NCBI GenBank assembly: GCA_020635455.1
Contig: JACJZT010000003.1
Coordinates: forward strand, 70,261-134,260
From: Flavobacteriales bacterium
GTDB taxonomy: Bacteria > Bacteroidota > Bacteroidia > NS11-12g > UBA9320
Length of the DNA: 64,000 bases
Direction of reading: 5' to 3'
Both the position numbers and the translations under genes were made by a program. The stretch's first letter is position 1. The number at the start of each line of letters is the position of its first letter. Shown in pieces: positions 1,740-63,110 of this stretch. Below the pieces are notes generated by a model, which worked only from the letters and a program-made list of their open reading frames with translations, was not told where the DNA came from and searched no databases.

Positions 1740-2019
1740 AGAATTACTGAATTAACATCCTTTCGAACCTGTGGAAGCAGAAGCTTATAATTCGAATTTA
1801 TATAGGACGAATCAATATCTATGGAGTTTGTCTCTTAACCGTCTGCTTTTTATCTGTCCAAGGTGAGTAAAACCATCCGAAAACACCTTGATACGAATAC
1901 ATTAAGGGTATTATCAGTTAGGCTTTTTTCAAAAAAATCGTCTGTTTTAAAATAAATTCATATACTTTGTGATACGAATTGTCTTTGGGATGTGTCAATA
2001 TTACAGGTTTGGAGAAAGT

Positions 2020-3201
2020 ATGAAAATAAAATCCGGCAAAAAAATTCTTCTACTGTCTCTTATCTTTTGTATGCTCTTTGTAGCCTGCAAAAAGGAGGAT
2101 GCACAAACTTTGAACTCTTCTGATTTTGTTAGTTATGGAAACAATGCAAATCTTGAACTAATTACACTTCTCCCTACTAGTGATGGTGGATTTATTGCAG
2201 GACTCAATTCTTATAAGAATGGGAATAAGGACATTCTTATCCTCAAATACAGCTCAAACCTCGACCTCGAATGGCAAAGAGAACTTGGGACAGTTTTTAA
2301 GGAGGATCTTCAAAAAATAATTGTTACCAAAACGAATGAGATTCTGGTTGCCGGTTTCAGTGAAGGGTTTATGCAAACCAATTTACCCGTAACACAACGC
2401 AAAAAAAACAATATTTACCTTATCCGTATGGATATGCAAGGAAAAATCTCCCGGGAAAACAGTTTGGACTTTGATCCTTCGAACCGACAGGATATACATG
2501 GGCTGGGAGATTTTTACATATCGGATGTTTTGGAAGAAAGTGATGCCGGTATCCTTGTTACAGGTTATTCATTGCTTAATGAATCTTTTGCAGGAGGGGG
2601 TTTTACAAGCTATTTCGGTTTTATGTTGAAAACGGATGACGCAGGGAACTTTCAAAAGAGATTTCAATTTCCAAAAATGCCTGAGTCGATTACTGAAACC
2701 CAAGATGCTTATCTCATACATTTTTTTACTTTCTTTGACGAGGAAGCCGGGTATTTTAAAGTTCTTAAATCCAGGTCCGGTGGCACCTATAACCAACTGT
2801 TAGACACAACAATATTCCCTTTTTATAACAATCGCTTACCGGAGACCAACTACGCCAGATACAAATTGTTGCCTGATGCGGATCATATCTTGTATGATTA
2901 TTGTTTTCCGGATCACATAAACCGCTATGAATATAACATACCAAATGATCAAATTGAATATAAGCGTATATCTTTACCAGAAGGACCATACAACTCAGCC
3001 TTTCCCCTGGATGATCACAAGGTATTGTTCTCCAAAGCATCAGGAGAGATCATGATCCTGAACTCCGGAAGCATCGAAGCGTTTGCCAAAACAAAATTCC
3101 CCATTACTAAAATTATTAGAACAAAGGGTGATTATTTTATAGTTGCTTCAATCTCGGAACAGAAATTTAATGTCTATAAATTCAATGTTAAGGATCGCTA
3201 G
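2020..3201 (+). CDS. hypothetical lipoprotein, possibly beta-propeller-like
   Basis: The internal ATG at 2020 gives MKIKSGKKILLLSLIFCMLFVAC, a signal peptide with a lipobox. Repeated blades of the form GG[FI]..G..DILILKY..NG..W resemble PQQ/BamB-like propellers. I recognise no named family. Confidence 0.5.
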   Translation: MKIKSGKKILLLSLIFCMLFVACKKEDAQTLNSSDFVSYGNNANLELITLLPTSDGGFIAGLNSYKNGNKDILILKYSSNLDLEWQRELGTVFKEDLQKIIVTKTNEILVAGFSEGFMQTNLPVTQRKKNNIYLIRMDMQGKISRENSLDFDPSNRQDIHGLGDFYISDVLEESDAGILVTGYSLLNESFAGGGFTSYFGFMLKTDDAGNFQKRFQFPKMPESITETQDAYLIHFFTFFDEEAGYFKVLKSRSGGTYNQLLDTTIFPFYNNRLPETNYARYKLLPDADHILYDYCFPDHINRYEYNIPNDQIEYKRISLPEGPYNSAFPLDDHKVLFSKASGEIMILNSGSIEAFAKTKFPITKIIRTKGDYFIVASISEQKFNVYKFNVKDR

Positions 3202-3202
3202 A

Positions 3203-4384
3203 ATGAATAAAGTTTTTTATCTTATTTTATTGGGTTTAGCCCTTTTCACCTCATGTAAAAAGAATGACGGGAATTTGTCGGTCCTGTTCAATGGAAACCC
3301 GAATAATTTTGTTCTCAGGGACCTTCAGGCCGGACCGGATGGTCATTTCTTCTGTCAGATGTTTAATTATAAGGATGGAACCAATCATATACTTGAGTAT
3401 GACAGGAATTTTAACCTTTTTAAACACATCAAGCTCAGTAAACTCAGCCAACCTGATTTTATTGAAGGCAACTTCCTGTTAAAATATCGAATGAACAAAG
3501 GTTGGTATGTGGTTAATTCCTATAACCTTGGTTTCGATAGTTCCAGACTTATTCTTTTCGCCACAGATGAAGATTTTAACATACTTCGTAAAAAAACCGT
3601 TTACAGCAGTATAAGGCGAGGTCCGTTGGCTTATGACCTTGAAGTTTTGGAAAATGATCATCTTTTGCTCAGTTGGGAAACCGTATTTTTATACAGGAAT
3701 GAGTCGTTTACGTATATTTCTGAATTTGACCCTGACTTTAATTTTGTGCATCATCTCGAGTGTGATAAAGATCTTCAAAAGACACAGGGCTATGTTTCTT
3801 CGGATAATCCCAGATTGACCGTAAAGGATGACGGCTCAATATTTTACTGTTTCAGGGCCTGGTTAACGGATACAGGCACCTTGGTAGCGGGTAAACTTGA
3901 TGCCAACCGGGATAAGGAATTTGAAAAGGTGCTGAAGATCGGATCAAATTCAAGGCCCGTTAGCCTGATACCCTTTAAGCAAAAGATCTTATTGGGAGCT
4001 ACGGAAGGTTATGCTGAAAAACCCTTTTTTATTTCGCTTAATAAGGAGGACGGAAGCTATTTTATGCCGGGAATTTTTGAAGAAAACCTAAACATCAATT
4101 CTGCATTTGAGATTCCTAATGTCTTGAATAAAATTGATGAAAATCATGCCGGGATTCTTCTTAAGGATCTTGGTACCAATGGGCTTGTCTATCGCAAATA
4201 CAATGAAGAATCTGTACTGCAACAACAGTTTAAAATCGATCTTCCTCCGGATGCAATCCTATATGGCTTCAGACAGATCAACATCCATAACGATTTACTT
4301 GTTGCCTGCAGTTACGAATACAAGAATAAACTTTATCTTAGTTTCAGGTGGCTTGATGAAAGTGGGAAAGTGATACTTGACTAA
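3203..4384 (+). CDS. hypothetical lipoprotein, paralog-like neighbour of the preceding gene
   Basis: The ATG at 3203, directly after the upstream TAG at 3199-3201, gives MNKVFYLILLGLALFTSC, a signal peptide with a lipobox. Its size and composition are similar to the upstream lipoprotein. Confidence 0.5.
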   Translation: MNKVFYLILLGLALFTSCKKNDGNLSVLFNGNPNNFVLRDLQAGPDGHFFCQMFNYKDGTNHILEYDRNFNLFKHIKLSKLSQPDFIEGNFLLKYRMNKGWYVVNSYNLGFDSSRLILFATDEDFNILRKKTVYSSIRRGPLAYDLEVLENDHLLLSWETVFLYRNESFTYISEFDPDFNFVHHLECDKDLQKTQGYVSSDNPRLTVKDDGSIFYCFRAWLTDTGTLVAGKLDANRDKEFEKVLKIGSNSRPVSLIPFKQKILLGATEGYAEKPFFISLNKEDGSYFMPGIFEENLNINSAFEIPNVLNKIDENHAGILLKDLGTNGLVYRKYNEESVLQQQFKIDLPPDAILYGFRQINIHNDLLVACSYEYKNKLYLSFRWLDESGKVILD

Positions 4385-4984: not shown

Positions 4985-5506
4985 ATGCTTAAAAAGATCT
5001 CCGGAATGATTGTAACGTTGCTCATTGCACTGTGTGCAAACGCCCAAACATTGAGTTCATCGGTAGTAAGTACAGGCGGCGCTTCTACAGCAAGCTCGGC
5101 AGGGTATCTTACCTACACCATCGGCGAAACCGTTCCAACAACTTTTACTTCTGGAACATCCCTATTGACCAGTGGGTTTCAACAGGGTCATACAAGTTCT
5201 GACCCTTTGGAGATCGTTGAATTAAGCCGTCAGGTGCAGATAAAACTTTTTCCAAATCCGGCGAAGTCTTTCATTGAGATCAACGTTGAGTCAGCCGACT
5301 ATAAATTTTTTAACATTACCATTTTCAATTCTCTGGGAGAAAAGATCCTTTGCCTTAATGACACTGAACCATCAGGCTTAGACCAAAACACACGTATAGA
5401 TCTCGAGGGTTTTGAGTCGGGTTTGTATTTTGCAAACGTAACCTTTAAGAACAACCTGACAGAGAACGGTCAAACAACCACCCGCAAATTTTTTATTCGT
5501 CCATAA
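4985..5506 (+). CDS. secreted protein with a T9SS (Por) C-terminal sorting domain and a Ser/Thr/Gly-rich linker
   Basis: A signal peptide (ANA-QT) is followed by a low-complexity S/T/G-rich stretch. The last ~85 aa (KLFPNPAKSFIEINV...GLYFANV...KFFIRP) match the type A T9SS CTD pattern. Confidence 0.6.
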   Translation: MLKKISGMIVTLLIALCANAQTLSSSVVSTGGASTASSAGYLTYTIGETVPTTFTSGTSLLTSGFQQGHTSSDPLEIVELSRQVQIKLFPNPAKSFIEINVESADYKFFNITIFNSLGEKILCLNDTEPSGLDQNTRIDLEGFESGLYFANVTFKNNLTENGQTTTRKFFIRP

Positions 5507-5525: not shown

Positions 5526-6749
5526 ATGAAATCAATCATTCTACGTAAACTATTTTTATTTTTCAGTATCGCTGTTAGCTTGAGCGCCTTCAGTCAGGTA
5601 CCGGAAAAGATCAATTATCAGGCTGTTGCAAGAGATGCAAACGGAACGATCATTGCTTCAAAAAGCATTTCTGTAAGGTTTTCAATTCACGATAACGGTG
5701 CCTCAGGGCCGGTAGTGTACAGTGAAACACAAAAAGTTGTTACCAATGCATTGGGAGTTTTTTCCGTTGCTATCGGAGGAGGAACTATTGTAAGTGGGTC
5801 TATGTCAACCATAAATTGGGGTTTAAACGACAAATTCCTTCAGGTAGAATTTGATCCAAATGGCGGAAATTCCTATTCCGATATGGGTTCCACTCAACTT
5901 TTGTCGGTTCCCTTCGCATTGTATTCTGCCAACGGAAAACCTGGTCCGGAAGGACCTGCCGGACCGGCAGGAGCCACAGGACCCGCAGGACCTGCAGGAC
6001 CTAAAGGAGATCCGGGAAATGACGGAAAAGACGGGATTAACGGTTTGAATGGAAAAGACGGTAAAGACGGAATTGATGGTAAAGACGGAAAAGATGGTGC
6101 ATCAAGTCTTAAAGGTGGCACCACAAATACATTGATCAAGTTCCAGGACGATTCTACAGGTGTTAATTCTATGATCACGGATAATGGCCAAACTGTTGGT
6201 ATCAATCAGGGAACCATGGATCCCAATGCCAAACTCGACATAAATGGAAGAATTAAGATCAGAGGGGGTTCACCAGGCAAAGGAAAAGTTTTGACCTCTG
6301 ATTCTCTTGGTCTTGCTTCATGGCAGGATGGTGCCGGCGGGTCAAAGGTTGGTTTCTCTGCCAAATTCAGTTCAGGTTTTAACATACCTTCCGGTGGTGC
6401 ATATTATATGAATTATGGTACTGAAGACTTCGACCACGGAAATAATTTTGCAGATACTGCATTTACCGCTCCTGCCGATGGTGTTTATCACTTTGATGTT
6501 CTTGCAACCTGGTATCAGTTTAGCACTGCTACTGGTTATAATTACATTAACTTAAGGGTTAATGGCGCAACTTATACCATCAATTACCAGCCAAACTTAA
6601 GTACATTGGTGGTAACCAATGAAGTATCGGCAAATATTGAACTTAAAAAAGGAGATACTGTAACTTGTACCATTTATCAAAACAGCGGCGCAACACAGGT
6701 ACTCAACTTTACAAGTAGCAATCGCTTTTCGGGTTATCGGGTTTACTAA
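5526..6749 (+). CDS. collagen triple-helix repeat protein with a C1q/TNF-like globular C-terminal domain
   Basis: A signal peptide, then an uninterrupted GXY tract of about 18 triplets ([34 protein letters not shown]...GKDGKDG), then a C-terminal jelly-roll-like region (GVYHFDV...[13 protein letters not shown]...FSGYRVY) typical of C1q-like domains. Confidence 0.6.
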
Positions 6750-6761
6750 TATTTTTATAAT

Positions 6762-7190
6762 CTAATCAAAAGGAGGGTTATTCTTAGGAATGCCCTCTTT
6801 TTTTATTTCCTTAGAGATCATTATGCTTTCAAAGATGTAGGATTTGACGAGGTCCGTATCAATTTCAGCATGATCAACAAAATCCTTATAATAAACCTGC
6901 TTTCGGTTGCCCTTATCAAGATAATTGATCTCATCGGTTAACAGATACCCAAGAGTAAAGCCCAACCGAACTCCTTCATAGCTTTTTTTTGCACCCCATA
7001 ATACAGAAGCAGGCCAAATAAAAAACAGTCTTGAGTACAAATGATAAAAAGGCACGTTATAAGAAAGTTTTTCCTTGATCTGTGGTTCACAATCAAAAAT
7101 CATATTCCTCAATATTTCTGTGATCAGCCTTTCGTCTTCCGGCAAAAAATCCAGAAATTCTTCAAGCGTGTTGAACTTTACATTTTGCAT
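6762..7190 (-). CDS. DUF1801 (YdhG-like) domain protein
   Basis: The size (142 aa) and the motif pattern LDFLPEDER..I..LR..I....P...EK.SYNVPFY....RL fit the DUF1801 family as I recall it. Confidence 0.45.
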   Translation of the reverse strand: MQNVKFNTLEEFLDFLPEDERLITEILRNMIFDCEPQIKEKLSYNVPFYHLYSRLFFIWPASVLWGAKKSYEGVRLGFTLGYLLTDEINYLDKGNRKQVYYKDFVDHAEIDTDLVKSYIFESIMISKEIKKEGIPKNNPPFD

Positions 7191-9680: not shown

Positions 9681-10766
9681 ATGAAATTAAGAATTTTAAT
9701 TGTTTCCATGCTCCTTCTTTCATTGTATGCATGTAAACACGATAACCATGATGAACACGAAACCGTAACTTATACCGTTACCAGTCCGGTAATAAAGGAT
9801 ACGATAATTTATCATGAATATGTTTGTCAGATACACTCCATTCAACACATTGAACTTAGAACACTTGAAAAAGGCTTTATTCAGAAAATTTTCGTTGATG
9901 AAGGACAATTCGTTAAAAAAGGCCAAATGCTTTTTCAGATCACTCCGGTAATAAACTCGGCCGAAGTACAGAAAGCCAGAGCAGAGGTAAGTTTTGCCGA
10001 GATCGAATATCTGAATACCAAGCAACTTGCCGACAGCAATATTGTTTCGAAAAATGAGCTGGCGCTTGCCAAAGCAACGCTCGACAAGGCAAAAGCCCTT
10101 CTTGCACTCGCTCAGGCCCACCTCAGGTTTACGGAAACAAGAGCCCCATTCGACGGTATCGTTGGGCGGTTTAACGACGTAAGACTCGGAAGCCTTGTAG
10201 ATGAAGGAGAATTGCTCACCACTTTATCGGATAACAGCAACATGTGGGTTTACTTTAACGTGCCCGAAGCCGAATATCTCGATTACCGCAGTGAAAACAA
10301 AACAAGCTCCGTGATCAAGGTAAAGTTAAAACTAGCCAATAATTCTATGTTCAATCATGAAGGGGAAGTTAGAACCATTGAAGCGGATTTTAATAACGAA
10401 ACGGGGAACATCGCATTCAGGGCAACCTTTCCGAATTCGGAAAGTTTACTTAGAAACGGCCAAACCGGAAACATACTCTTACCGGTTTATCACAAGAATG
10501 CAATGCTAATTCCTCAAAAGGCAACTTTCGACATATTGAATAAAAAGTATGTATTTGTTTTGGACAAGAACAATGTTTTAAGTTCAAGAGAGATCAAGGT
10601 TGGAAATGACCTGCAGCACCTTTACGAGGTTCATTCAGGGCTTGACGAAAAAGACATCGTACTCGTTGATGGACTTCGAAAAGTAAAAAATGGCCAGAAG
10701 ATCAATACTGAGTTCATAAAGCAGGAAACGCTCTGGAAAGAGCTTAAGGATCTGCATGCTGAATAA
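9681..10766 (+). CDS. RND efflux periplasmic adaptor (membrane fusion protein, HlyD family), lipoprotein
   Basis: A lipobox (LSLYAC), a coiled-coil hairpin region, and beta-barrel and MP domains typical of the AcrA/MexA family. It is directly upstream of the RND permease. Confidence 0.8.
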   Translation: MKLRILIVSMLLLSLYACKHDNHDEHETVTYTVTSPVIKDTIIYHEYVCQIHSIQHIELRTLEKGFIQKIFVDEGQFVKKGQMLFQITPVINSAEVQKARAEVSFAEIEYLNTKQLADSNIVSKNELALAKATLDKAKALLALAQAHLRFTETRAPFDGIVGRFNDVRLGSLVDEGELLTTLSDNSNMWVYFNVPEAEYLDYRSENKTSSVIKVKLKLANNSMFNHEGEVRTIEADFNNETGNIAFRATFPNSESLLRNGQTGNILLPVYHKNAMLIPQKATFDILNKKYVFVLDKNNVLSSREIKVGNDLQHLYEVHSGLDEKDIVLVDGLRKVKNGQKINTEFIKQETLWKELKDLHAE

Positions 10767-10789
10767 TTAACGTTCTAATTTTTTAAAAA

Positions 10790-13700
10790 ATGTTCAGTAA
10801 ATTTATTCAAAGACCGGTTCTAGCTATTTCCATTTCATTAGCGATCGTTTTTCTGGGCGTTCTTGCAATTGTAACAAGACCAATTTCCCAGTTTCCGGAG
10901 ATCGCCCCTCCCCGTGTAAATATATTTATTGCTTATCCGGGCTCAAGTGCTCAGGTACTCGTTGAATCCACCCTCATTCCACTCGAAAGGGCCATCAATG
11001 GTGTTCAGGGAATGCAATATTTAATTTCAGATGCTACCAGCGCAGGAGAAGCAACCGTTCAAATCGTTTTTGAACCCGGAACGGATGCCAACGCTGCCGT
11101 AGTGAATGTGAAGACCCGGGTTGACGCCATCATGAACAATCTGCCCCCTCTTGTGCAAAGAGAAGGGATCATAATTACACCGATCCAGCCCAGTATGCTA
11201 ATGTATGTTAACCTTTTCAGCAAGGATAAAAATGCAGATGAAAAGTTTTTATACAATTACGCGAACGTTCATATTTTGCCTGAATTGCAAAGGATCAGTG
11301 GTATGGGAAGAGCCCAGATACTGGGAAGCCGGCAATATGCCATGAGGGTTTGGCTTAAACCCGACAGAATGAGGGCTTATAATGTCTCAACCGACGAAGT
11401 TATGGATGCCATGAAAGAGCAGAGCGTGATCGGTCGTCCGGGCCGATTAGGGCAAGCCTCAGGTAAAAAAGCACAATCGCTCGAATATGTTCTTACCTAC
11501 AAAGGTCGGTTCAACAAACCCGAAGAGTATGAGAACATTATTGTAAAAGCCAATACCAATGGTGAGATCATTAAGCTTAAGGATATTGCTGAAGTTGAGC
11601 TTGGTAGTGAGTTTTTCGACCTTTATTCAAACATTGACGGATATCCCTCTGCATCTATTGTGCTCAAACAAAATTTTGGAACCAATGCCAGTAAGGTAAT
11701 ACAAGGTGCAAAAGAAAAACTCGAGGAACTTAAGAAAGATTTTCCGCCGGGTATGGATTATGAGATCAATTACGATGTCTCAAAATTTGTGAACGCATCC
11801 ATCGAAAAAGTGCTGCATACACTTGTTGAAGCCTTTGTGCTCGTGGCATTGGTTGTGTTTATCTTTTTGGGTGACTGGCGTTCGACCTTAATTCCAATTA
11901 TAGCCGTTCCGGTTTCCCTGATTGGTGCATTTGTATTTATGCAGATGTTTGGTTTGACCATAAACCTTATCACTTTATTTGCTCTGGTATTATCGATCGG
12001 AATCGTGGTTGATGATGCCATTGTTGTAGTTGAGGCAGTGCACGCCAAAATGGAAGAAGAACATTTAAGCCCTTTCCATGCTGTAAAAAAAGTACTTGGA
12101 GAGATCAGCGGTGCCATCATTGCGATAACCTTGATCATGACAGCGGTTTTTGTGCCGGTGGCATTTATGACCGGACCTGTAGGAGTGTTTTACAGACAGT
12201 TTTCCATCACCATGGCGAGTTCCATAATTTTGTCGGGTATCGTTGCCTTAACATTAACTCCGGTGCTTTGCGCAATGATCCTTAAAAACAATCACGGAAA
12301 AACCAAAAGGAAGACACCGGTAGATCTTTTTATTGGCTGGTTCAACAAAATCTTTGGCAAACTTACAAACCGATATACCGACCTTTTAAAAATAGTCGTT
12401 AACCGAAGGCTTGTTACCTTTAGCATTCTGATAATCTTCGCTTTTGGGATCTTTTCGGTCAACAGGGTGCTTCCATCCGGATTCATCCCCAATGAAGATC
12501 AGGGAATGATCTATGCGATCATTCAAACACCTCCCGGTACAACCCTGGAAAGAACCAATGAAGTGTCACGGCAATTGCAAGAGGTTGCTGAAGATATCGA
12601 AGGTATACAATCTGTATCTTCTCTGGCTGGGTTTGAGATCCTTACGGAAGGCCGGGGTTCGAACGCCGGTACATGTATCATTAATTTAAAAGAATGGTCG
12701 GATCGAAAGCACAATGTACATGAGATCATTGAAGAGTTGGAATTAAAGTCTAAGAACCTTGGGGCCATCATTGAGTTTTTCGAGCCGCCTGCCGTTCCGG
12801 GATATGGTTCTTCAGACGGATTTTCACTCCGCTTACTCGACAAAAGCAGCACCATTGATTACCAGGAATTTGACAAAACAAATTCTGAGTTTATGGATGC
12901 TTTGCGAAAAAGAAAGGAATTGACCGGACTGTTTACGTTTTACGCAGCAAACTATCCCCAGTATGAACTGGTGATCGACAATCAGCTGGCAATGCAAAAA
13001 GGTGTTTCGATCGGTAAGGCTATGGAAAACCTTGATATCCTGATTGGCAGTACATATGAACAGGGATTTGTAAGGTTCAACACTTTTTTCAAGGTTTATA
13101 CTCAGTCCGGGCCGGAATACAGGCGCCTTCCTTCCGATGTTTTGAACTTGTTTATCAAAAACAATAAAGACGAGATGGTTCCCTATTCATCCTTTATGAA
13201 ACTGGTTAAAAGTCAGGGCCCAAATGAGATCACGCGTTTCAATCTTTACACTTCATCCGCGATCAGGGGTATGCCTGCCGAAGGCTACACCACAGGAGAT
13301 GCCATTAAAGCGATCAGGGAAGTGGCCGACCAAACACTTGGACAAGGTTATGACATTGCATGGGAAGGTTTATCGTACGACGAGTCGAACAGAGGAAATG
13401 AAGCACTGTACATTTTTATTGTGGTGCTGATTTTTGTTTACCTGGTACTATCCTCGCAATATGAAAGTTTTATCATACCGCTTTCGGTTGTTCTTTCATT
13501 ACCGGCCGGTGTATTTGGCTCCTTCTTTTTACTTAAGGTTATGGGATTGTCTAACGATATTTATGCACAGATCGGACTGATCATGCTGGTGGGATTGCTT
13601 GGTAAAAATGCTGTCTTAATTGTAGAATTTGCAGTTCAGAAACACCATAACGGTGCCAGCGTTCTTGCCTCGGCAATTGAAGGAGCCAAGGTCAGGTTCA

Positions 13701-14035
13701 GGCCCATTTTGATGACCTCGTTTGCGTTTATAGCCGGATTGATCCCACTGGTCACAGCAACCGGCCCGGGGGCCGTTGGCAATCGCACCATAGGAGCTTC
13801 AGCTTTGGGAGGCATGTTGTTAGGAACCGTATTCGGGGTCATCATTGTTCCGGGTTTGTATTATATTTTTGGAAGCCTTGCATCCGGAAGAAAAATGATT
13901 CAGGATGAAGACGTCAACCCGCTAACAGAGGATTTCGTGCATTCAAATTCTGAAGCTTCCCTGATAAAAAAAATAAGCAAACTAAATTTAATGTTAAAGG
14001 TAGCAAGACGTAAAAACAAGAAAAATGAAGACTAA
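10790..14035 (+). CDS. RND multidrug efflux permease (AcrB/HAE1 family)
   Basis: 1081 aa with 12 TM segments, two large periplasmic loops, and the conserved AcrB-type TM4 region (VLSIGIVVDDAIVVVE). Confidence 0.9.
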   Translation: MFSKFIQRPVLAISISLAIVFLGVLAIVTRPISQFPEIAPPRVNIFIAYPGSSAQVLVESTLIPLERAINGVQGMQYLISDATSAGEATVQIVFEPGTDANAAVVNVKTRVDAIMNNLPPLVQREGIIITPIQPSMLMYVNLFSKDKNADEKFLYNYANVHILPELQRISGMGRAQILGSRQYAMRVWLKPDRMRAYNVSTDEVMDAMKEQSVIGRPGRLGQASGKKAQSLEYVLTYKGRFNKPEEYENIIVKANTNGEIIKLKDIAEVELGSEFFDLYSNIDGYPSASIVLKQNFGTNASKVIQGAKEKLEELKKDFPPGMDYEINYDVSKFVNASIEKVLHTLVEAFVLVALVVFIFLGDWRSTLIPIIAVPVSLIGAFVFMQMFGLTINLITLFALVLSIGIVVDDAIVVVEAVHAKMEEEHLSPFHAVKKVLGEISGAIIAITLIMTAVFVPVAFMTGPVGVFYRQFSITMASSIILSGIVALTLTPVLCAMILKNNHGKTKRKTPVDLFIGWFNKIFGKLTNRYTDLLKIVVNRRLVTFSILIIFAFGIFSVNRVLPSGFIPNEDQGMIYAIIQTPPGTTLERTNEVSRQLQEVAEDIEGIQSVSSLAGFEILTEGRGSNAGTCIINLKEWSDRKHNVHEIIEELELKSKNLGAIIEFFEPPAVPGYGSSDGFSLRLLDKSSTIDYQEFDKTNSEFMDALRKRKELTGLFTFYAANYPQYELVIDNQLAMQKGVSIGKAMENLDILIGSTYEQGFVRFNTFFKVYTQSGPEYRRLPSDVLNLFIKNNKDEMVPYSSFMKLVKSQGPNEITRFNLYTSSAIRGMPAEGYTTGDAIKAIREVADQTLGQGYDIAWEGLSYDESNRGNEALYIFIVVLIFVYLVLSSQYESFIIPLSVVLSLPAGVFGSFFLLKVMGLSNDIYAQIGLIMLVGLLGKNAVLIVEFAVQKHHNGASVLASAIEGAKVRFRPILMTSFAFIAGLIPLVTATGPGAVGNRTIGASALGGMLLGTVFGVIIVPGLYYIFGSLASGRKMIQDEDVNPLTEDFVHSNSEASLIKKISKLNLMLKVARRKNKKNED

Positions 14036-15455
14036 GCAACTATCTAAATACTTCTTATTGGTCCTTTTCCCTGCAATTTTATGGGGATGTATTCCGGGCC
14101 TGAGATTTATAAAAACAGAAAACAGGACTTTACCACAAAATTTTGGTGAACATACAGATTCTTCAAACATTGCAAATAAAAACTGGAGAGAAGTATTTCA
14201 GGATTCGAATTTAATTTCACTGATCGATACAGCCTTAAAGAACAATCAGGAACTGAACATCATCCTTCAGGAAATAGAAATTTCGAAGAATGAGATCATG
14301 GCAAAAAAGGGTGAATATCTGCCATTTGTAAAGCTGGGTTTGGGTAATGGTCTGGAAAAATCCGGAAAATTCACACGAAATGGTGCCGTTGAAGAACAAC
14401 TTGATATTAAGGATGGAAAAAAGTTTCCGGAACCCTTACAGGATCATTTTTTTGGTGCTTCGGCGAGTTGGGAACTCGACATCTGGAATAAGCTAAGAAA
14501 CGCCAGAAAGTCATCTGTGGCAAGTTATCTGGCTTCTATTGAAGGCAAAAACTTTATGATCACCAATTTGGTTGCTGAAATTTCGGAGGCCTATTACGAA
14601 TTGATGGCTCTTGACAATGTACTGGATATTGTTGTGAAAAACATTGAAATTCAGTCGAGTGCCCTGAACGTTGTAAAACAGCAAAAGGATGCCGCCAAAG
14701 TATCCCAGCTTGCGGTAAATCGATTTCAGGCTCAGTTGCTGAACACTCAAAACCTGCAATATGAAGTTAAACAAAAGATCATTGAGACCGAAAACCGGAT
14801 TAATTTTCTTACCGGACAATTTCCACAAACCATTAAAAGAAACTGGAGAATTTATTTAAACCTGGACCTGAACACCTATCAAACAGGTATACCCTCAGAT
14901 CTTTTGATGAACAGGCCTGATATTAACCAGGCAGAGAACGAGTTGAATGCCTCTAAAATTGACGTTAAAGTTGCCAGAGCCGGATTTTTACCTTCAATGG
15001 CGATACGCGCCGGTATGGGATTTCAGGCCTTTAATCCGGTATTTCTTCTGAATCCCGAATCACTGATGTACAATTTTGCAGGAGATCTTGTTTCACCACT
15101 TATAAACCGAAAGGCGATCAAAACCGAATATTTCAATGCTAATTCAAAGCAAATTCAGGCAGTATATAATTATGAAAGAACTATACTGAATGCCTATCTG
15201 GACGTTTTGAATCAAATGTCGAAGATCGAAAACTATACTAAAAGTTTTGAAACCAAAAAGAATGAAGTGGATCTTTTGATACAGTCTGTAACCATTGCCA
15301 ACAGCCTGTTCAATGCTGCAAGGGCCGACTATGCAGAGGTTTTGTTAACTCAAAGGGAAGCCCTCGAATCAAAAATGGACCTGGTGGAGATCAAAATGAA
15401 ACAGATCAATGCAGAGATAAATATTTACCGCGCTTTGGGGGGAGGCTGGAGGTGA
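14025..15455 (+). CDS. RND efflux outer membrane factor (TolC/OprM family) lipoprotein
   Basis: A lipobox (LWGC) and two OEP repeats. Its ATG overlaps the stop of the permease (ATGA...TAA junction). Confidence 0.8.
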   Translation: MKTKQLSKYFLLVLFPAILWGCIPGLRFIKTENRTLPQNFGEHTDSSNIANKNWREVFQDSNLISLIDTALKNNQELNIILQEIEISKNEIMAKKGEYLPFVKLGLGNGLEKSGKFTRNGAVEEQLDIKDGKKFPEPLQDHFFGASASWELDIWNKLRNARKSSVASYLASIEGKNFMITNLVAEISEAYYELMALDNVLDIVVKNIEIQSSALNVVKQQKDAAKVSQLAVNRFQAQLLNTQNLQYEVKQKIIETENRINFLTGQFPQTIKRNWRIYLNLDLNTYQTGIPSDLLMNRPDINQAENELNASKIDVKVARAGFLPSMAIRAGMGFQAFNPVFLLNPESLMYNFAGDLVSPLINRKAIKTEYFNANSKQIQAVYNYERTILNAYLDVLNQMSKIENYTKSFETKKNEVDLLIQSVTIANSLFNAARADYAEVLLTQREALESKMDLVEIKMKQINAEINIYRALGGGWR

Positions 15456-58940: not shown

Positions 58941-61900
58941 ATGACAAAAAAATTTACTACCAAACACAAATTATTAGGATTTATCCTGATGATCCTCGGT
59001 TTGATGGGAAGTTCTTCTTTCAATCAAACCCAGGCGCAAAGTTATTGTGAAGGTTATTCCTATTACGGATGTGCCTACAGTTCTTATTATTATTTCCCGA
59101 TCGAAAGGGTCAATGTAAAAGATGTTTCAGGAAACTACCTTTTACAAAAGCCTGCTGATGCTTGTAATCAGGGATTCATTACTTCAACAAATTCGGTTGG
59201 TAATGGTTATTCATTGGTAAGCACCAAACCAAGTTTCTCATTGTCTTCAGGTTCGAAGTACACCTTGGAAACCAGTGCTAGCTATGGTTACATCGGGTAC
59301 GGAGGAACCTATTCAGTATACATCTACTGCTGGATCGACCTTAACCGTGACGGTGTATTCTCGTCAAATGAATATATGTCGAATGGTTGGTCGCAAATGA
59401 ACACTGGTGGTAAAGAGCCATTCACAGGTGGACCGTTAACAGCCAACACTTTCACCGTTCCTTGTGGTGTAAAGGCAGGAACTTCAAGAATGCGTCTTAT
59501 GTCTTCGTATTCTTATCAGTTAAACGCTAACAGTCCTTGTCCAACAGGTATTAGCGGAAGCCCAACCTATTATTATGGTGAAACCGAAGATTATACCATA
59601 GACCTTGCAAACCCAACCAGTCTGGCTGCAGGTTTCTACATGCCAACTTCGGCTTTTGTAGGTACTCCAATAAAAATGACCAACAACAACCAAACCGGTT
59701 ACATTGCTCACCAGTGGGATATCGATGATGACGGATCCATTGAATACGTAACAACCAATGCAACTCATATCTTCAATTCGGTTGGAAATCGTTGTGTTCG
59801 TCTTAAGAGCCAAAATTGTTTAGGACGAGATTCCGTTTTAAGATGCATCAATATTGTAAATCCTACTTCTAAGCCAATTGTAGATTTTGCTTCAAACACA
59901 AACGAAGTTGAACGTTTCGGAACCGTTGATTTCATAGACCTTTCTCAAAACGGACCAACCTACTGGAGCTGGTATATGTTCGACCCTAAAGATTCGGTTA
60001 ATACCCGTATCGACGTTGAGACCTATAACAACAATTTGGTAGGTAACGACCCATACACCAATGCAAATCCTGAAGTTTTCTTCAATACCATTGGTACATA
60101 TACGGTTTGTTTACAAACTTCAAATAACTTAGGACCTTCCAGTGTTCTTTGTAAACCGAACTATATACGTGTAACTCCGTTTAAAGACAACAACCTTGGT
60201 GCAGGTACCGTTCAGCCAATTTATGAGCAAAGCGGTAACCTTATTGACGACGGAGGAAGAACCGGTAATTATTCCAACAATCGTGTGGATTATGCTACCA
60301 TCATTCCTTGCGGAGCCAAAAAGATCAACCTTCAGTTCCACCAGTTCAAAGTTGCGTCAGGTGATATCCTGAGAGTTTACGATGGTATTGATGCTACCGG
60401 AACCCCACTTCATACCGGAAATGGTTTCACTGCAGGTAACTCACCTTCCTTAACCACTCCTATTGTTGCTACTTCAGGTGCACTATACGTTTACTTTACC
60501 TCTAACGGTTCAGGAAACGACTCAGGATTTATTGCAAGCTGGACTACTGAAAGAGGTCCTATTGTTCCTCCGGATGCGGATTTCGATATTCCGGATACTC
60601 TTTACAACCCAAATACATATACTTTTATAAACACTTCTTTGAACGCTTTAGGTAAAGCAGATTTTGTATGGGACATTGAGCCCGGATACGGAGAAGTTGC
60701 TTACACTAAAGATCTTGAATATGCTATTTTAACCGACAATACCTATGATGTTCGATTGACCGTAAGTACTTGTATGGGTACCGATTATAAGATCAAAAAA
60801 GTGGTTGTGGTAACTCCACATAAGAGAGCTGATGTTGATTTTGTAGCGGATAACCGTCGTCCGAACACAGGGCAAACCGTAAACTTTGAAGCCTTGAACC
60901 CAAAACCGAATAAGGCCATCAAAACCAATATGTATCAGTGGGATTTCTTCCCTGCTACGATTTCTTACGTTAACAGCACAACTGCAAATGACCCAAAAAT
61001 TTCAGTTACTTTTAACGCAAAAGGTAAATACACTGCCTCTTTAAGAGCATGGAACTCTTTAGATTCAGCTGCAACTTCAGTTACTGTAATTAAAGCAGAT
61101 TACATCATCGCTGTTGAACATTGCACTCCTCTTCTAGGTGTGTCATCTTCAACTGACGTTGCGATCAACGAAGTGATCCTTACCGATAAAGACAATGTTG
61201 AGTTGATTAACAACAAATCTGAGAACAACGATCTTGGATACGACGATTACACCAATACCAATATAAAAGCTGATTTACAGTATGGTTCTACCTATGAGAT
61301 CATGATATCACGAAATACAAACGTTAACCCAATGACCCGTAAGGTATGGATCGACTGGAACATTGACGGTGATTTCATAGATGCAGGTGAATTGGTTGCC
61401 AGTGAAGCTGCCGGTACAAACAATAGCTTTACTGCTAAGTTCACAGTTCCAGATTACACCAAGGCATTTGAAGGAAAATCAAGAATGAGGATTGGAGCAA
61501 GTTACTCAAACGATCCTAACCTTCCTTGTGGTGCTTCTTCCGGTGTGAACAATGCTAACCGAATTGGTGAGTTTGAGGATTACACCGTAGTTATCACTAA
61601 TGACAATCAACCTCCGGTTCTTGCTTTGAACAACGACGACACCTTGTATCTTGAAGTTGGAAGTACGTATACCGAATACGGCGCAACTGCAACTGATCCA
61701 ACTGAAGGCGATATCAGCTCAAAAGTTGTTATTACTTCAGACCTTGATATGTTGTTCACCGGTATCTATTTCCTTACCTATAACGTAACCGACGCAGGAG
61801 GTAATAAAGCCTTACCGGTAACAAGAGTGGTATACGTTGTGAAAGACCAGACTGCTCCGGTACTAACTTTAAATGGTAGCGATACAGTTTACCTTGAAGT

Positions 61901-63110
61901 AATTAAGGATACTTATGTTGAAGATGGTGCTACTGCAATGGACAATAAAGATGGTAACATCACCAACACAATTTTGATTACAGGTTCTGTTAATACCAAT
62001 ATGGTTGGAACCTACATCGTTACTTACAGTGTAAATGACGTAGCAGGAAACAATGCAAGCAAGCAAAGAGTTGTTATCGTTCGCGATACTCAAAAACCTG
62101 TTATTACCAACAGTGACGCTGATGCCAGCAATAACGTTAAAGTTCAGATCGTATCTGTATTCATTGACAGAACTTCAGTAACAGACAACTACGACAAACC
62201 TCAGCTGGATGTTACTCCAGGTGTTGCCGGTCCGGTTGACACACGATTCAAAGGCACTTATCCAATGATCTACAATGCTACTGACGGTTCAGGTAACATG
62301 GCTGATACCAAAACCTATAACTACATTGTTGATGATTATGTTGGCCCTGCCATTAATCTTAACACTCTTGACACTATCCTGCATGATGTAAACAAAGCTT
62401 ACACACCTGTTCAGGCTACTGCATCTGATAATTACTATGACAATTCTCAGGTTTCTTTAACCAGATCTTCTAACGTCGATGCTTACAAACTTGGTTTATA
62501 TTACGATGAGTTCGTAGCTACGGATGGTAGTGGTAACAAAACAACCAGAAGACGTTATGTTAGAGTTGTTGACAGAGTTGCTCCTGTAATTAACGGATAC
62601 AACTTAAACGTTGGTTTGTACTCAAACATAGATGCAACTGAAGGTGTTGCTGTTACAGATAATTACGATTCTCCACAGGCATTGCGTCCAAGACTGGAAA
62701 TTTTAATTAACAACCTAAACACTTACGAGGAAGGTATGTATACTATTTCTTTCCAGGTGTCTGACTTAAGTGGAAACGTTAGTGCTCCATATCAAAGACT
62801 TATTTGGGTAAGCCGATTGTTCCCAACCATTACAGGTGACGTGAAAGACATTAACCCTGAAAAGGCCATCAATGTTTATCCTAATCCTACCAATGGAGAA
62901 GTTAACATAAGCTACAATTTTGCTACTCCGGAAGATGTTACCATTATGGTATTCAACTCAACCGGTGCTTTGGTTAAATCTGTAAACAACGTTCATGGAC
63001 AAAGTGGTATTGAAACCATTGATCTTAGCAACGAAGCAAATGGACTATACCATGTAAGAATGATGGTAGCCGGTAAGCAAATTACCAGAACCATTTCTTT
63101 AAATAAGTAA
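58941..63110 (+). CDS. large T9SS-secreted surface adhesin-like protein (GEVED domains, DUF5011/Ig-like repeats, type A CTD)
   Basis: A signal peptide, two GEVED-type motifs (GETEDYTIDL and GEFEDYTVVI), at least five ~70-aa repeats of the DUF5011 pattern (Y.E.GATA.D..DG.I...V.I.G.V....GTY.VTY.V.D.AGN), and a C-terminal ~80 aa matching the T9SS CTD (INVYPNPTNGEVNI...GLYHVRM...). Confidence 0.75.
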   Translation: MTKKFTTKHKLLGFILMILGLMGSSSFNQTQAQSYCEGYSYYGCAYSSYYYFPIERVNVKDVSGNYLLQKPADACNQGFITSTNSVGNGYSLVSTKPSFSLSSGSKYTLETSASYGYIGYGGTYSVYIYCWIDLNRDGVFSSNEYMSNGWSQMNTGGKEPFTGGPLTANTFTVPCGVKAGTSRMRLMSSYSYQLNANSPCPTGISGSPTYYYGETEDYTIDLANPTSLAAGFYMPTSAFVGTPIKMTNNNQTGYIAHQWDIDDDGSIEYVTTNATHIFNSVGNRCVRLKSQNCLGRDSVLRCINIVNPTSKPIVDFASNTNEVERFGTVDFIDLSQNGPTYWSWYMFDPKDSVNTRIDVETYNNNLVGNDPYTNANPEVFFNTIGTYTVCLQTSNNLGPSSVLCKPNYIRVTPFKDNNLGAGTVQPIYEQSGNLIDDGGRTGNYSNNRVDYATIIPCGAKKINLQFHQFKVASGDILRVYDGIDATGTPLHTGNGFTAGNSPSLTTPIVATSGALYVYFTSNGSGNDSGFIASWTTERGPIVPPDADFDIPDTLYNPNTYTFINTSLNALGKADFVWDIEPGYGEVAYTKDLEYAILTDNTYDVRLTVSTCMGTDYKIKKVVVVTPHKRADVDFVADNRRPNTGQTVNFEALNPKPNKAIKTNMYQWDFFPATISYVNSTTANDPKISVTFNAKGKYTASLRAWNSLDSAATSVTVIKADYIIAVEHCTPLLGVSSSTDVAINEVILTDKDNVELINNKSENNDLGYDDYTNTNIKADLQYGSTYEIMISRNTNVNPMTRKVWIDWNIDGDFIDAGELVASEAAGTNNSFTAKFTVPDYTKAFEGKSRMRIGASYSNDPNLPCGASSGVNNANRIGEFEDYTVVITNDNQPPVLALNNDDTLYLEVGSTYTEYGATATDPTEGDISSKVVITSDLDMLFTGIYFLTYNVTDAGGNKALPVTRVVYVVKDQTAPVLTLNGSDTVYLEVIKDTYVEDGATAMDNKDGNITNTILITGSVNTNMVGTYIVTYSVNDVAGNNASKQRVVIVRDTQKPVITNSDADASNNVKVQIVSVFIDRTSVTDNYDKPQLDVTPGVAGPVDTRFKGTYPMIYNATDGSGNMADTKTYNYIVDDYVGPAINLNTLDTILHDVNKAYTPVQATASDNYYDNSQVSLTRSSNVDAYKLGLYYDEFVATDGSGNKTTRRRYVRVVDRVAPVINGYNLNVGLYSNIDATEGVAVTDNYDSPQALRPRLEILINNLNTYEEGMYTISFQVSDLSGNVSAPYQRLIWVSRLFPTITGDVKDINPEKAINVYPNPTNGEVNISYNFATPEDVTIMVFNSTGALVKSVNNVHGQSGIETIDLSNEANGLYHVRMMVAGKQITRTISLNK

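Follow-up and report, generated by a model that had tools for sequence, protein, structure and literature searches.

Organization of the fibre locus

The DNA analysed here (the window) is a 64,000-nucleotide (nt) stretch of contig JACJZT010000003.1, from a metagenome-assembled genome (MAG) of a Flavobacteriales bacterium. Within it we studied a gene for a predicted surface fibre and the small gene directly upstream, hereafter the partner gene, which encodes a predicted type IX secretion system (T9SS) substrate (Table 1). The fibre protein is identical to NCBI entry H6605_02845 (hypothetical protein, MAG: Flavobacteriales bacterium). An earlier note on this DNA had placed the open reading frame (ORF) exactly and had assigned it to a Bacteroidota genome; the assignment is correct, because the identical protein is recorded in a Flavobacteriales MAG. 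The note proposed a collagen-like protein with a C1q-type head that forms a surface fibre or comes from a prophage tail fibre. The collagen-C1q surface fibre is upheld by our analysis and the prophage origin is not. The note overlooked both the family-defining N-terminal domain, which probably links the protein to the mosaic adhesive trimers (MATs) of Bdellovibrio, and the conserved upstream partner gene.

Table 1. Coordinates of the fibre gene, the partner gene and associated features in the window
Feature	Coordinates	Strand	Size or residues	Basis or remark
Partner gene (small T9SS substrate)	4985..5506	+	173 aa	Stop codon 20 nt before fibre start
Partner signal peptide	Start of 4985..5506	+	aa 1-20	Sequence; cleavage between ANA and Q
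Partner conserved module	5045-5185	+	~47 aa (aa 21-67)	Consensus ..VISSSGG....SLS.TVGE....TF....LTQGFQQ; followed by a linker
Partner type A T9SS C-terminal sorting domain	5246-5503	+	aa 88-173	Por_Secre_tail, TIGR04183
Fibre gene	5526..6749	+	407 aa	ORF list; ATG start; stop codon 6747-6749
Sec (signal peptidase I) signal peptide	5526..5594	+	aa 1-23	Read from sequence; model helix 2-21; predicted cleavage between AFS and Q
N-terminal beta-sandwich base domain	5595..5930	+	aa 24-135 (112 aa)	Family-defining; probable homologue of a portion of the N-terminal domain of Bdellovibrio MATs
Collagen-like stalk	5934..6104	+	aa 137-193	19 uninterrupted GXY triplets; imperfect 9/18-nt DNA periodicity
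Neck	6105..6326	+	aa 194-267	blastp, PHROG, model; contains a 32-residue motif
C1q/TNF-type jelly-roll head	6327..6746	+	aa ~268-407	Pfam, AlphaFold2, Foldseek; ends FSGYRVY (family motif)
Antisense ORF	5894..6205	-	103 aa	ORF list; TTG start; Pro/Ser/Gly-rich
Hairpin and U-run	6768..6810	+		RNA fold -17.2 kcal/mol, z=-2.5; probably ends the two-gene unit as an intrinsic terminator

Domain composition of the fibre protein

The fibre protein has four modules: a signal peptide, the base, the stalk with its neck, and the head. A sequence reading of the signal peptide found no lipobox Cys. Gln24 at the cleavage site was invariant in 50 aligned relatives, and P26 was nearly so. The base domain was modelled by AlphaFold2 as a beta-sandwich with a confidence score (pLDDT) of ~90-97. 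No Pfam model matches this domain. It does match NCBIfam NF053851 (Bdello_MAT_N, mosaic adhesive trimer family chimeric fiber protein) with E=2e-11; the score is 44 bits against a curated cut-off of 60 bits, and the alignment joins aa 14-91 of the fibre protein to model positions 3-80 of 162.

The collagen-like stalk scored 39.7 bits with Pfam Collagen PF01391 (cut-off 27.2). The earlier note had described an uninterrupted run of about 18 GXY triplets at ~5932-6098; the run is real and unbroken, with 19 triplets. It is the only GXY run of more than four triplets in the six frames of the window and is therefore not a chance feature.

The neck is common to 36 of 134 proteins retrieved by blastp. 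It also occurs in other fibres, including proteins with different N-termini, and it bears a remote likeness to phage tail-fibre profiles. Its pLDDT was low in the monomer model.

The C-terminal region had been said to carry C1q/TNF hallmarks, and this was borne out by both sequence profile and fold. Pfam C1q PF00386 matched aa 305-404 (profile positions 29-125 of 127, E=3.5e-5), just above its gathering score, and the match includes the motif F-x-A-P-x-x-G-x-Y-x-F and the C-terminal FSG. The precomputed NCBI annotation of the identical protein lists Collagen only. AlphaFold2 (50-sequence alignment) gave a monomer model with pLDDT ~90 over aa 270-407, and Foldseek comparison with the PDB returned 360 matches at E<=1e-3. 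The top ones were nearly all C1q-family or TNF heads with TMt of 0.70-0.83, including C1QL3 (0.83), caprin-2 (0.79), C1QL2 (0.78) and BclA (0.70; 3tyj). Cbln1, C1q globular heads, collagen VIII NC1 and EDA-A1 were further matches. The head model thus has a C1q/TNF jelly-roll fold and withstands the refutation check that the note had named for it.

Pfam matches to Enas, Big_1 and DUF4179 (E 0.03-0.23) lay below threshold and were disregarded.

A mosaic fibre family in Bacteroidota

With the base domain as query, phmmer was run exhaustively against 1.84 billion cluster representatives and retrieved 23,818 proteins at E<=1e-3 and 18,605 at E<=1e-10. The representatives were almost all from Bacteroidota, and the domain nearly always stood directly after the signal peptide; in 263 of 267 sampled family proteins it began no later than residue 60. 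NF053851 was matched by 33 of 33 diverse family N-domains from which signal peptides had been removed (best E 2.8e-12), and by essentially nothing else.

We also scanned GTDB (one genome per species) with a narrower N-domain alignment, A3, the broader alignment A2 being too diverse for locus finding. At least 581 base-domain loci were confirmed, often with several copies per genome. The best 80 of these were all labelled Bacteroidota except for one evidently mislabelled MAG, and they included Chitinophagales, Flavobacteriales, Saprospiraceae, Pedobacter and 'Bacteroidales' MAGs. Two loci with typical fibre-partner cassettes (L040 and L042) come from a MAG labelled 'uncultured Bifidobacteriaceae bacterium', which is probably mislabelled or a contaminated bin.

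The modules of the fibre protein are combined differently among its relatives. Only seven retrieved proteins share all its other modules: five with collagen (P0002-P0005 over their full length, P0007 with a much longer collagen tract) and two without it (P0006 and P0121). The base domain alone, with or without collagen, is common to hundreds of proteins. Behind this same domain we found C1q, Lcl_C, Fib_succ_major, Peptidase_S74, phage Collar, YadA head, DUF7151 and Gly_rich_2 tips. Among the 267 sampled family proteins, 61% carried a collagen tract and 20 (7.5%) a C1q-type head; collagen length across the family ranged from 0 to more than 300 triplets. In P0110 and P0119 the base domain is joined to the head through non-collagen repeats. 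The neck and head also follow unrelated N-terminal parts, for example PPC-like domains and regions of 'NVGIG' repeats. The fibre protein is thus put together as a cassette from base, spacer, neck and tip. With an unchanging base and exchangeable stalks and tips, the family would provide a set of adhesins that differ in specificity, and the fibre gene is its collagen and C1q version.

Tandem base domains were also observed among the cluster representatives. In P0136 (916 aa) six copies precede a FlgD_ig-like C-terminal domain, and in P0137 (548 aa) three copies precede a Fib_succ_major tip; the domain is thus not confined to a single basal copy.

Comparison with known fibres

The MATs of Bdellovibrio bacteriovorus are fibres with an invariant N-domain next to the cell, a trimeric stalk and swappable tips of S74 and non-S74 classes, two of the non-S74 tips being TNF/C1q-like (Caulton et al. 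2024, PMC10769870). Table S3 of that paper lists members from the FCB group, among them a 704-aa Saprospiraceae protein with a 'collagen-like' tip, and proteins from Kordia, Dokdonia, Patiriisocius and Salinivirga (PMC10769870). Both the occurrence of MATs in Bacteroidota and their use of collagen have therefore been published before. The paper states as an open question to what the invariant base domain attaches (PMC10769870). Our search of the literature on Bacteroidota collagen-like or C1q proteins, or on a T9SS link of such fibres, turned up nothing relevant.

Like MATs, the fibre protein has a conserved N-terminal domain after its signal peptide, and the domain is significantly similar to that of MATs (NF053851, E~1e-11); its family shares with them the swapping of S74, non-S74 and TNF/C1q-like tips and the presence of several paralogues per genome. 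It differs in several respects. Its stalk consists of 19 GXY triplets and a neck of ~75 aa, whereas that of Bdellovibrio is an intertwined beta-prism. The protein has 407 aa compared with ~1,000 aa in Bdellovibrio, and its match to the MAT_N model covers only the first half, below the cut-off. The host has no known predatory lifestyle. The gene is attached to a T9SS partner gene, which is not described for Bdellovibrio.

The earlier note had compared the architecture to that of BclA of the Bacillus anthracis/cereus exosporium, and the analogy holds: both have a collagen-like stalk of lineage-variable length followed by a C-terminal head of C1q/TNF fold, which is trimeric in BclA and probably so in the fibre protein, and the two heads superpose with a TM-score of 0.70. 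Sequence similarity, however, is restricted to the GXY part (phmmer against the PDB, E=0.24). BclA has an exosporium-targeting motif at its N-terminus, whereas the fibre protein has a Sec signal and a beta-sandwich; BclA lies on a Gram-positive spore surface, and its DNA repeats are near-perfect, unlike those of the fibre gene. Eukaryotic C1q/TNF proteins (C1q, adiponectin/CTRPs, C1QL, cerebellins, collagen VIII/X NC1) likewise place collagen before a gC1q head and supply most of the best structural matches (TM 0.74-0.83), with an identity of 15-22%. The fibre protein differs from them in being bacterial and in its N-terminal region, and we found no evidence for higher-order bouquets.

Legionella Lcl and streptococcal Scl1/Scl2 also use a collagen-like spacer in a surface adhesin. 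Their NCBIfam models match the fibre protein on the collagen part only, with scores far below the family cut-offs. The Lcl_C head is found on many sister proteins in the fibre family, whereas the fibre protein itself has a C1q head that differs from it. Lcl is exported by type II secretion. Scl has the opposite polarity, with a variable head at the N-terminus and an LPXTG anchor at the C-terminus. BclA, eukaryotic C1q/CTRP proteins, Lcl and Scl are thus architectural analogues, not relatives, outside the GXY region or head fold. Collagen-bearing phage tail fibres (PHROG 5073, 1806 and 8745) resemble it in the collagen and the neck that follows, and the head resembles phage knob and receptor-binding domains; the fibre protein differs in its signal peptide, in a cellular N-domain that is absent from the phage collections searched, and in its lack of phage neighbours.

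A T9SS substrate gene is paired with the fibre gene

The partner gene is annotated 'T9SS type A sorting domain-containing protein'. Its sorting domain scored 46.6 bits with Pfam Por_Secre_tail (cut-off 27) and 31.7 bits with TIGR04183 (cut-off 23). The 47-aa module that follows the partner signal peptide has no relative in Pfam, NCBIfam, PHROGs or PDB. A word-based homologue search with the partner protein returned only itself, and homologues were therefore drawn from the fetched loci, that is, from 81 loci and the window, which together contained 98 N-domain ORFs and 42 module-bearing ORFs.

The two closest orthologous loci have a 172-aa partner homologue 14-17 nt upstream of the fibre gene (L001 4392-4910, L002 5468-5986), and most other neighbours of these cassettes differ. 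Across the family, a partner lies directly upstream and co-oriented in 36 of 98 genes, with a median gap of ~23 nt in a tally of the listed gaps, and directly downstream of five further genes. Conversely, 41 of the 42 module-bearing ORFs adjoin a fibre gene. Five loci each contain two tandem partner-fibre cassettes. The pairing spans Chitinophagales, Flavobacteriales, Saprospirales, Pedobacter and 'Bacteroidales' MAGs.

In Pedobacter sp. BAL39 the module is joined to a sorting domain of type B (CHU_C, 95 bits), not of type A. In two Saprospiraceae MAGs it heads larger dockerin and cohesin proteins encoded directly after fibre genes (L060 6617-8329, L070 6908-8329; both ORFs run off the locus end), and in L058 (5331-8336) it stands at the N-terminus of a protein of ~1,000 aa, right after the fibre gene, that contains the start of a T9SS sorting domain. 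These larger proteins hint that the 47-aa module is a general docking element.

The fibre protein itself had no match to T9SS sorting-domain models (Por_Secre_tail, TIGR04183 or CHU_C) even at E<=1, and none of the 98 family ORFs matched a sorting-domain model. Two other origins of the partner were considered and rejected: the module as a split-off or duplicated N-domain (hhalign probability 0.2%), and the partner as the detached second half of a MAT N-domain (no NF053851 match).

A 1,389-aa ORF elsewhere in the window (58941-63110, + strand) matches at its C-terminus a sorting-domain model built from partner proteins (E=5e-19), which indicates that the genome encodes other, large T9SS cargo.

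Proposed function of the fibre and its partner

The fibre gene is an ordinary member of a recognised class, the bacterial collagen-like C1q/TNF-headed fibres and MAT-like mosaic adhesins. We estimate a probability of about 0.68 that its product is a secreted, probably homotrimeric, cell-surface adhesive fibre of four modules resembling MATs. Collagen helices and C1q/TNF heads are trimeric. These properties, together with the work on MATs, suggest the trimer, the surface location and the ligand. What the analysis itself shows is the set of domains, the predicted folds of base and head, the mosaic make-up of the family, the surroundings free of phage genes and the recurring gene pair; an adhesive role and any physical contact with the partner are inferred. 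A surface fibre, as the earlier note had put it, is the best reading of the protein.

The following mechanism may be proposed. The Sec signal peptide would be cleaved before the invariant Gln, and the base beta-sandwich would hold the fibre on the surface of the producing cell. The collagen triple helix of 19 triplets (~16 nm, from 57 residues x ~0.29 nm rise) would act with the neck as a spacer. The C1q/TNF head would start trimerization and present the ligand-binding tip; by analogy with C1q/TNF-type MAT tips, its ligand is probably a glycan or surface polymer. Partner and fibre are probably co-transcribed, and the hairpin and U-run that begin ~20 nt past the fibre stop codon fit a two-gene transcription unit. 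The consensus terminator scanner did not call this hairpin, because its stem is long and carries an internal bulge. Type IX secretion would export the partner's 47-aa module and fix it to the surface, where it may serve as a dock, or possibly as a carrier, for the base domain.

The conserved gene pairing marks the small T9SS substrate as the obvious candidate for docking or carrying the fibre. We suggest tentatively, as something possible rather than probable, that its module supplies the surface component still missing for base domains of MAT type in Bacteroidota, with the base binding to it or the folded fibre riding through the T9SS translocon on it. If true, this would be a two-component display in trans, in which a tip-swappable fibre without its own sorting domain is shown on the surface, in a family that comprises more than 20,000 protein clusters. 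The pairing is a concrete and testable candidate for what the MAT base domain holds on to, and it bears on how fibres without a T9SS sorting signal reach the Bacteroidota surface. The interest of the gene lies mainly in this lead and in the size of the unannotated family: the class is large and modular in Bacteroidota, with ~24,000 clusters sharing one unnamed N-terminal domain that has no Pfam model. Such fibres may shape the attachment of environmental Bacteroidota to particles, hosts or prey.

Several observations weigh against the proposed fibre and its docking. The MAT_N match stays below the NCBI curated cut-off and spans no more than the first half of the model. With Pfam C1q, the score of 24.5 bits barely exceeds the gathering score (23.7), although the fold agrees. 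The protein has no recognised signal for outer-membrane translocation or anchoring (no lipobox, beta-barrel or T9SS signal). The structure models are of the monomer, and trimerization, surface exposure and binding are predictions from known properties of its domains and of MATs. Two orthologues have no collagen at all, so the collagen helix is not essential to the fibre design, and 19 triplets without hydroxyproline may form a helix of only marginal stability. The partner's presence clustered on the N-domain tree to a moderate degree only (65 of 96 concordant; 50.5 expected; p~0.005), and no sequence relationship or diagnostic residues link it to the N-domain. A universal role of the partner is opposed by the ~60% of family genes that lack an adjacent one, by this moderate clustering and by the MATs of Bdellovibrio, which is not known to have a T9SS.

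Alternative explanations

The same fibre family could exist with the T9SS gene as a mere neighbour; the fibre would then be released, or retained by lipopolysaccharide, an outer-membrane protein or pili. An adjacent partner is present for only ~40% of family genes, and all five fibre copies in one Chitinophagales MAG are without one. Bdellovibrio, which has MAT fibres, is not known to have a type IX secretion system, and no sequence signal of an interaction between partner and fibre was found. A chance association, however, does not account well for the near-complete restriction of module ORFs in the sampled loci to fibre-adjacent positions, with gaps of ~20 nt and across several taxonomic orders, for the duplication of the cassette as a unit, or for a pairing that is kept whichever type of T9SS sorting domain is present and although all other neighbours differ. 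We regard mere proximity as rather unlikely.

An origin as a prophage tail-fibre remnant, which the earlier note had raised, or as a phage-derived receptor-binding protein held in the chromosome with no cellular role, would fit some of the profile and fold matches. PHROG 5073 ('tail fiber protein') matches aa 136-326 of the fibre protein with E=9e-15, and PHROG 1806 ('collagen like minor tail') also matches; these tail-fibre profiles, however, reach only the collagen and part of the neck. The best Foldseek E-value of the head was obtained with the phage phi812 spike knob (E=9e-10), cyanophage tail-fibre domains were among its best matches, and some relatives carry phage Collar or S74 chaperone tips. 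The remaining evidence points the other way. The protein starts with a Sec signal peptide whose predicted cleavage site has an invariant Gln, and no phage genes lie within ~5 kb on either side of the gene, where the neighbours are ordinary chromosomal genes and none matches PHROGs. tblastn searches of 50,697 phage genomes with the N-domain and with the neck and head gave no match, and 2.9 million IMG/VR contigs gave no confirmed relative with the patterns that had found the at least 581 loci in bacterial genomes. The family is chromosomal and very large, has several copies per genome and is almost wholly confined to one phylum, and its two-gene cassette is found in different housekeeping contexts. 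A phage origin is thus extremely improbable. The collagen repeat has also been considered a contingency locus, at which slipped-strand mispairing would often shift the number of triplets so that fibre length varies within populations. The repeat had been called near-perfect at the DNA level. Its periodicity is real: Tandem Repeats Finder reported overlapping arrays with periods of 9, 18, 27 and 36 nt. The near-perfect label holds only if wobble positions are allowed, because these arrays have only 69-83% matches and the longest exact direct repeat in the collagen tract is 13 nt (at 6060 and 6078). The segment named in the note encodes 16 residues at 6051-6098, with the codons GGA AAA GAC/GGT AAA GAC/GGA ATT GAT/GGT AAA GAC/GGA AAA GAT/GGT; its units are GGW AAA GAY with a single GGA ATT GAT unit mid-way, and each unit differs from the next. 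Among orthologues that share base, neck and head, the stalks count 0, 0, 19, 19, 19, 23, 23 and ~101 triplets, and stalk length has therefore clearly changed over evolutionary time. The three orthologues with 19 triplets, however, are only 52-54% identical to the fibre protein, which speaks for a stable repeat number, and exact-match scans of metagenome contigs gave no strain-level variants of the fibre gene. With an imperfect repeat of this kind, slippage is weakly supported; high-frequency slippage at the fibre locus is not supported, and we consider it improbable.

Other features of the locus

The antisense ORF reported in the earlier note exists and lies wholly within the collagen-coding part, as would be expected of a spurious ORF; its Pro/Ser/Gly-rich product is the mirror image of a GGN-CCN-rich tract. 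No paralogues of the fibre or partner modules were found elsewhere in the window.

The five genes on each side of the fibre gene include di-haem cytochrome c peroxidases (MauG/CCP), two predicted lipoproteins, DUF1801, a metallo-beta-lactamase-fold protein, an epimerase and an HlyD/RND (resistance-nodulation-division) efflux set. The last is an apparent three-gene operon (9681-15455, + strand). Its first gene encodes an HlyD-type membrane-fusion protein by Pfam, and the second and third ORFs (1,081 aa and 476 aa) would fit an RND pump and an outer-membrane factor.

Two overlapping ORFs (83-628 and 609-1739, + strand) both match di-haem cytochrome c peroxidase (CCP_MauG), the first only at the profile end and with a RoxA-like cytochrome c motif. 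The pair may represent tandem genes, or else a single gene broken by a frameshift. Two adjacent ORFs of ~410 aa (1969-3201 and 3143-4384, + strand) overlap by 59 nt and have lipoprotein-like N-termini (..LFVAC and ..LFTSC, each followed by KK). Their products had no Pfam or PHROG match and share 31% identity over ~80 aa (E=3e-6); they are probably paralogous lipoproteins.

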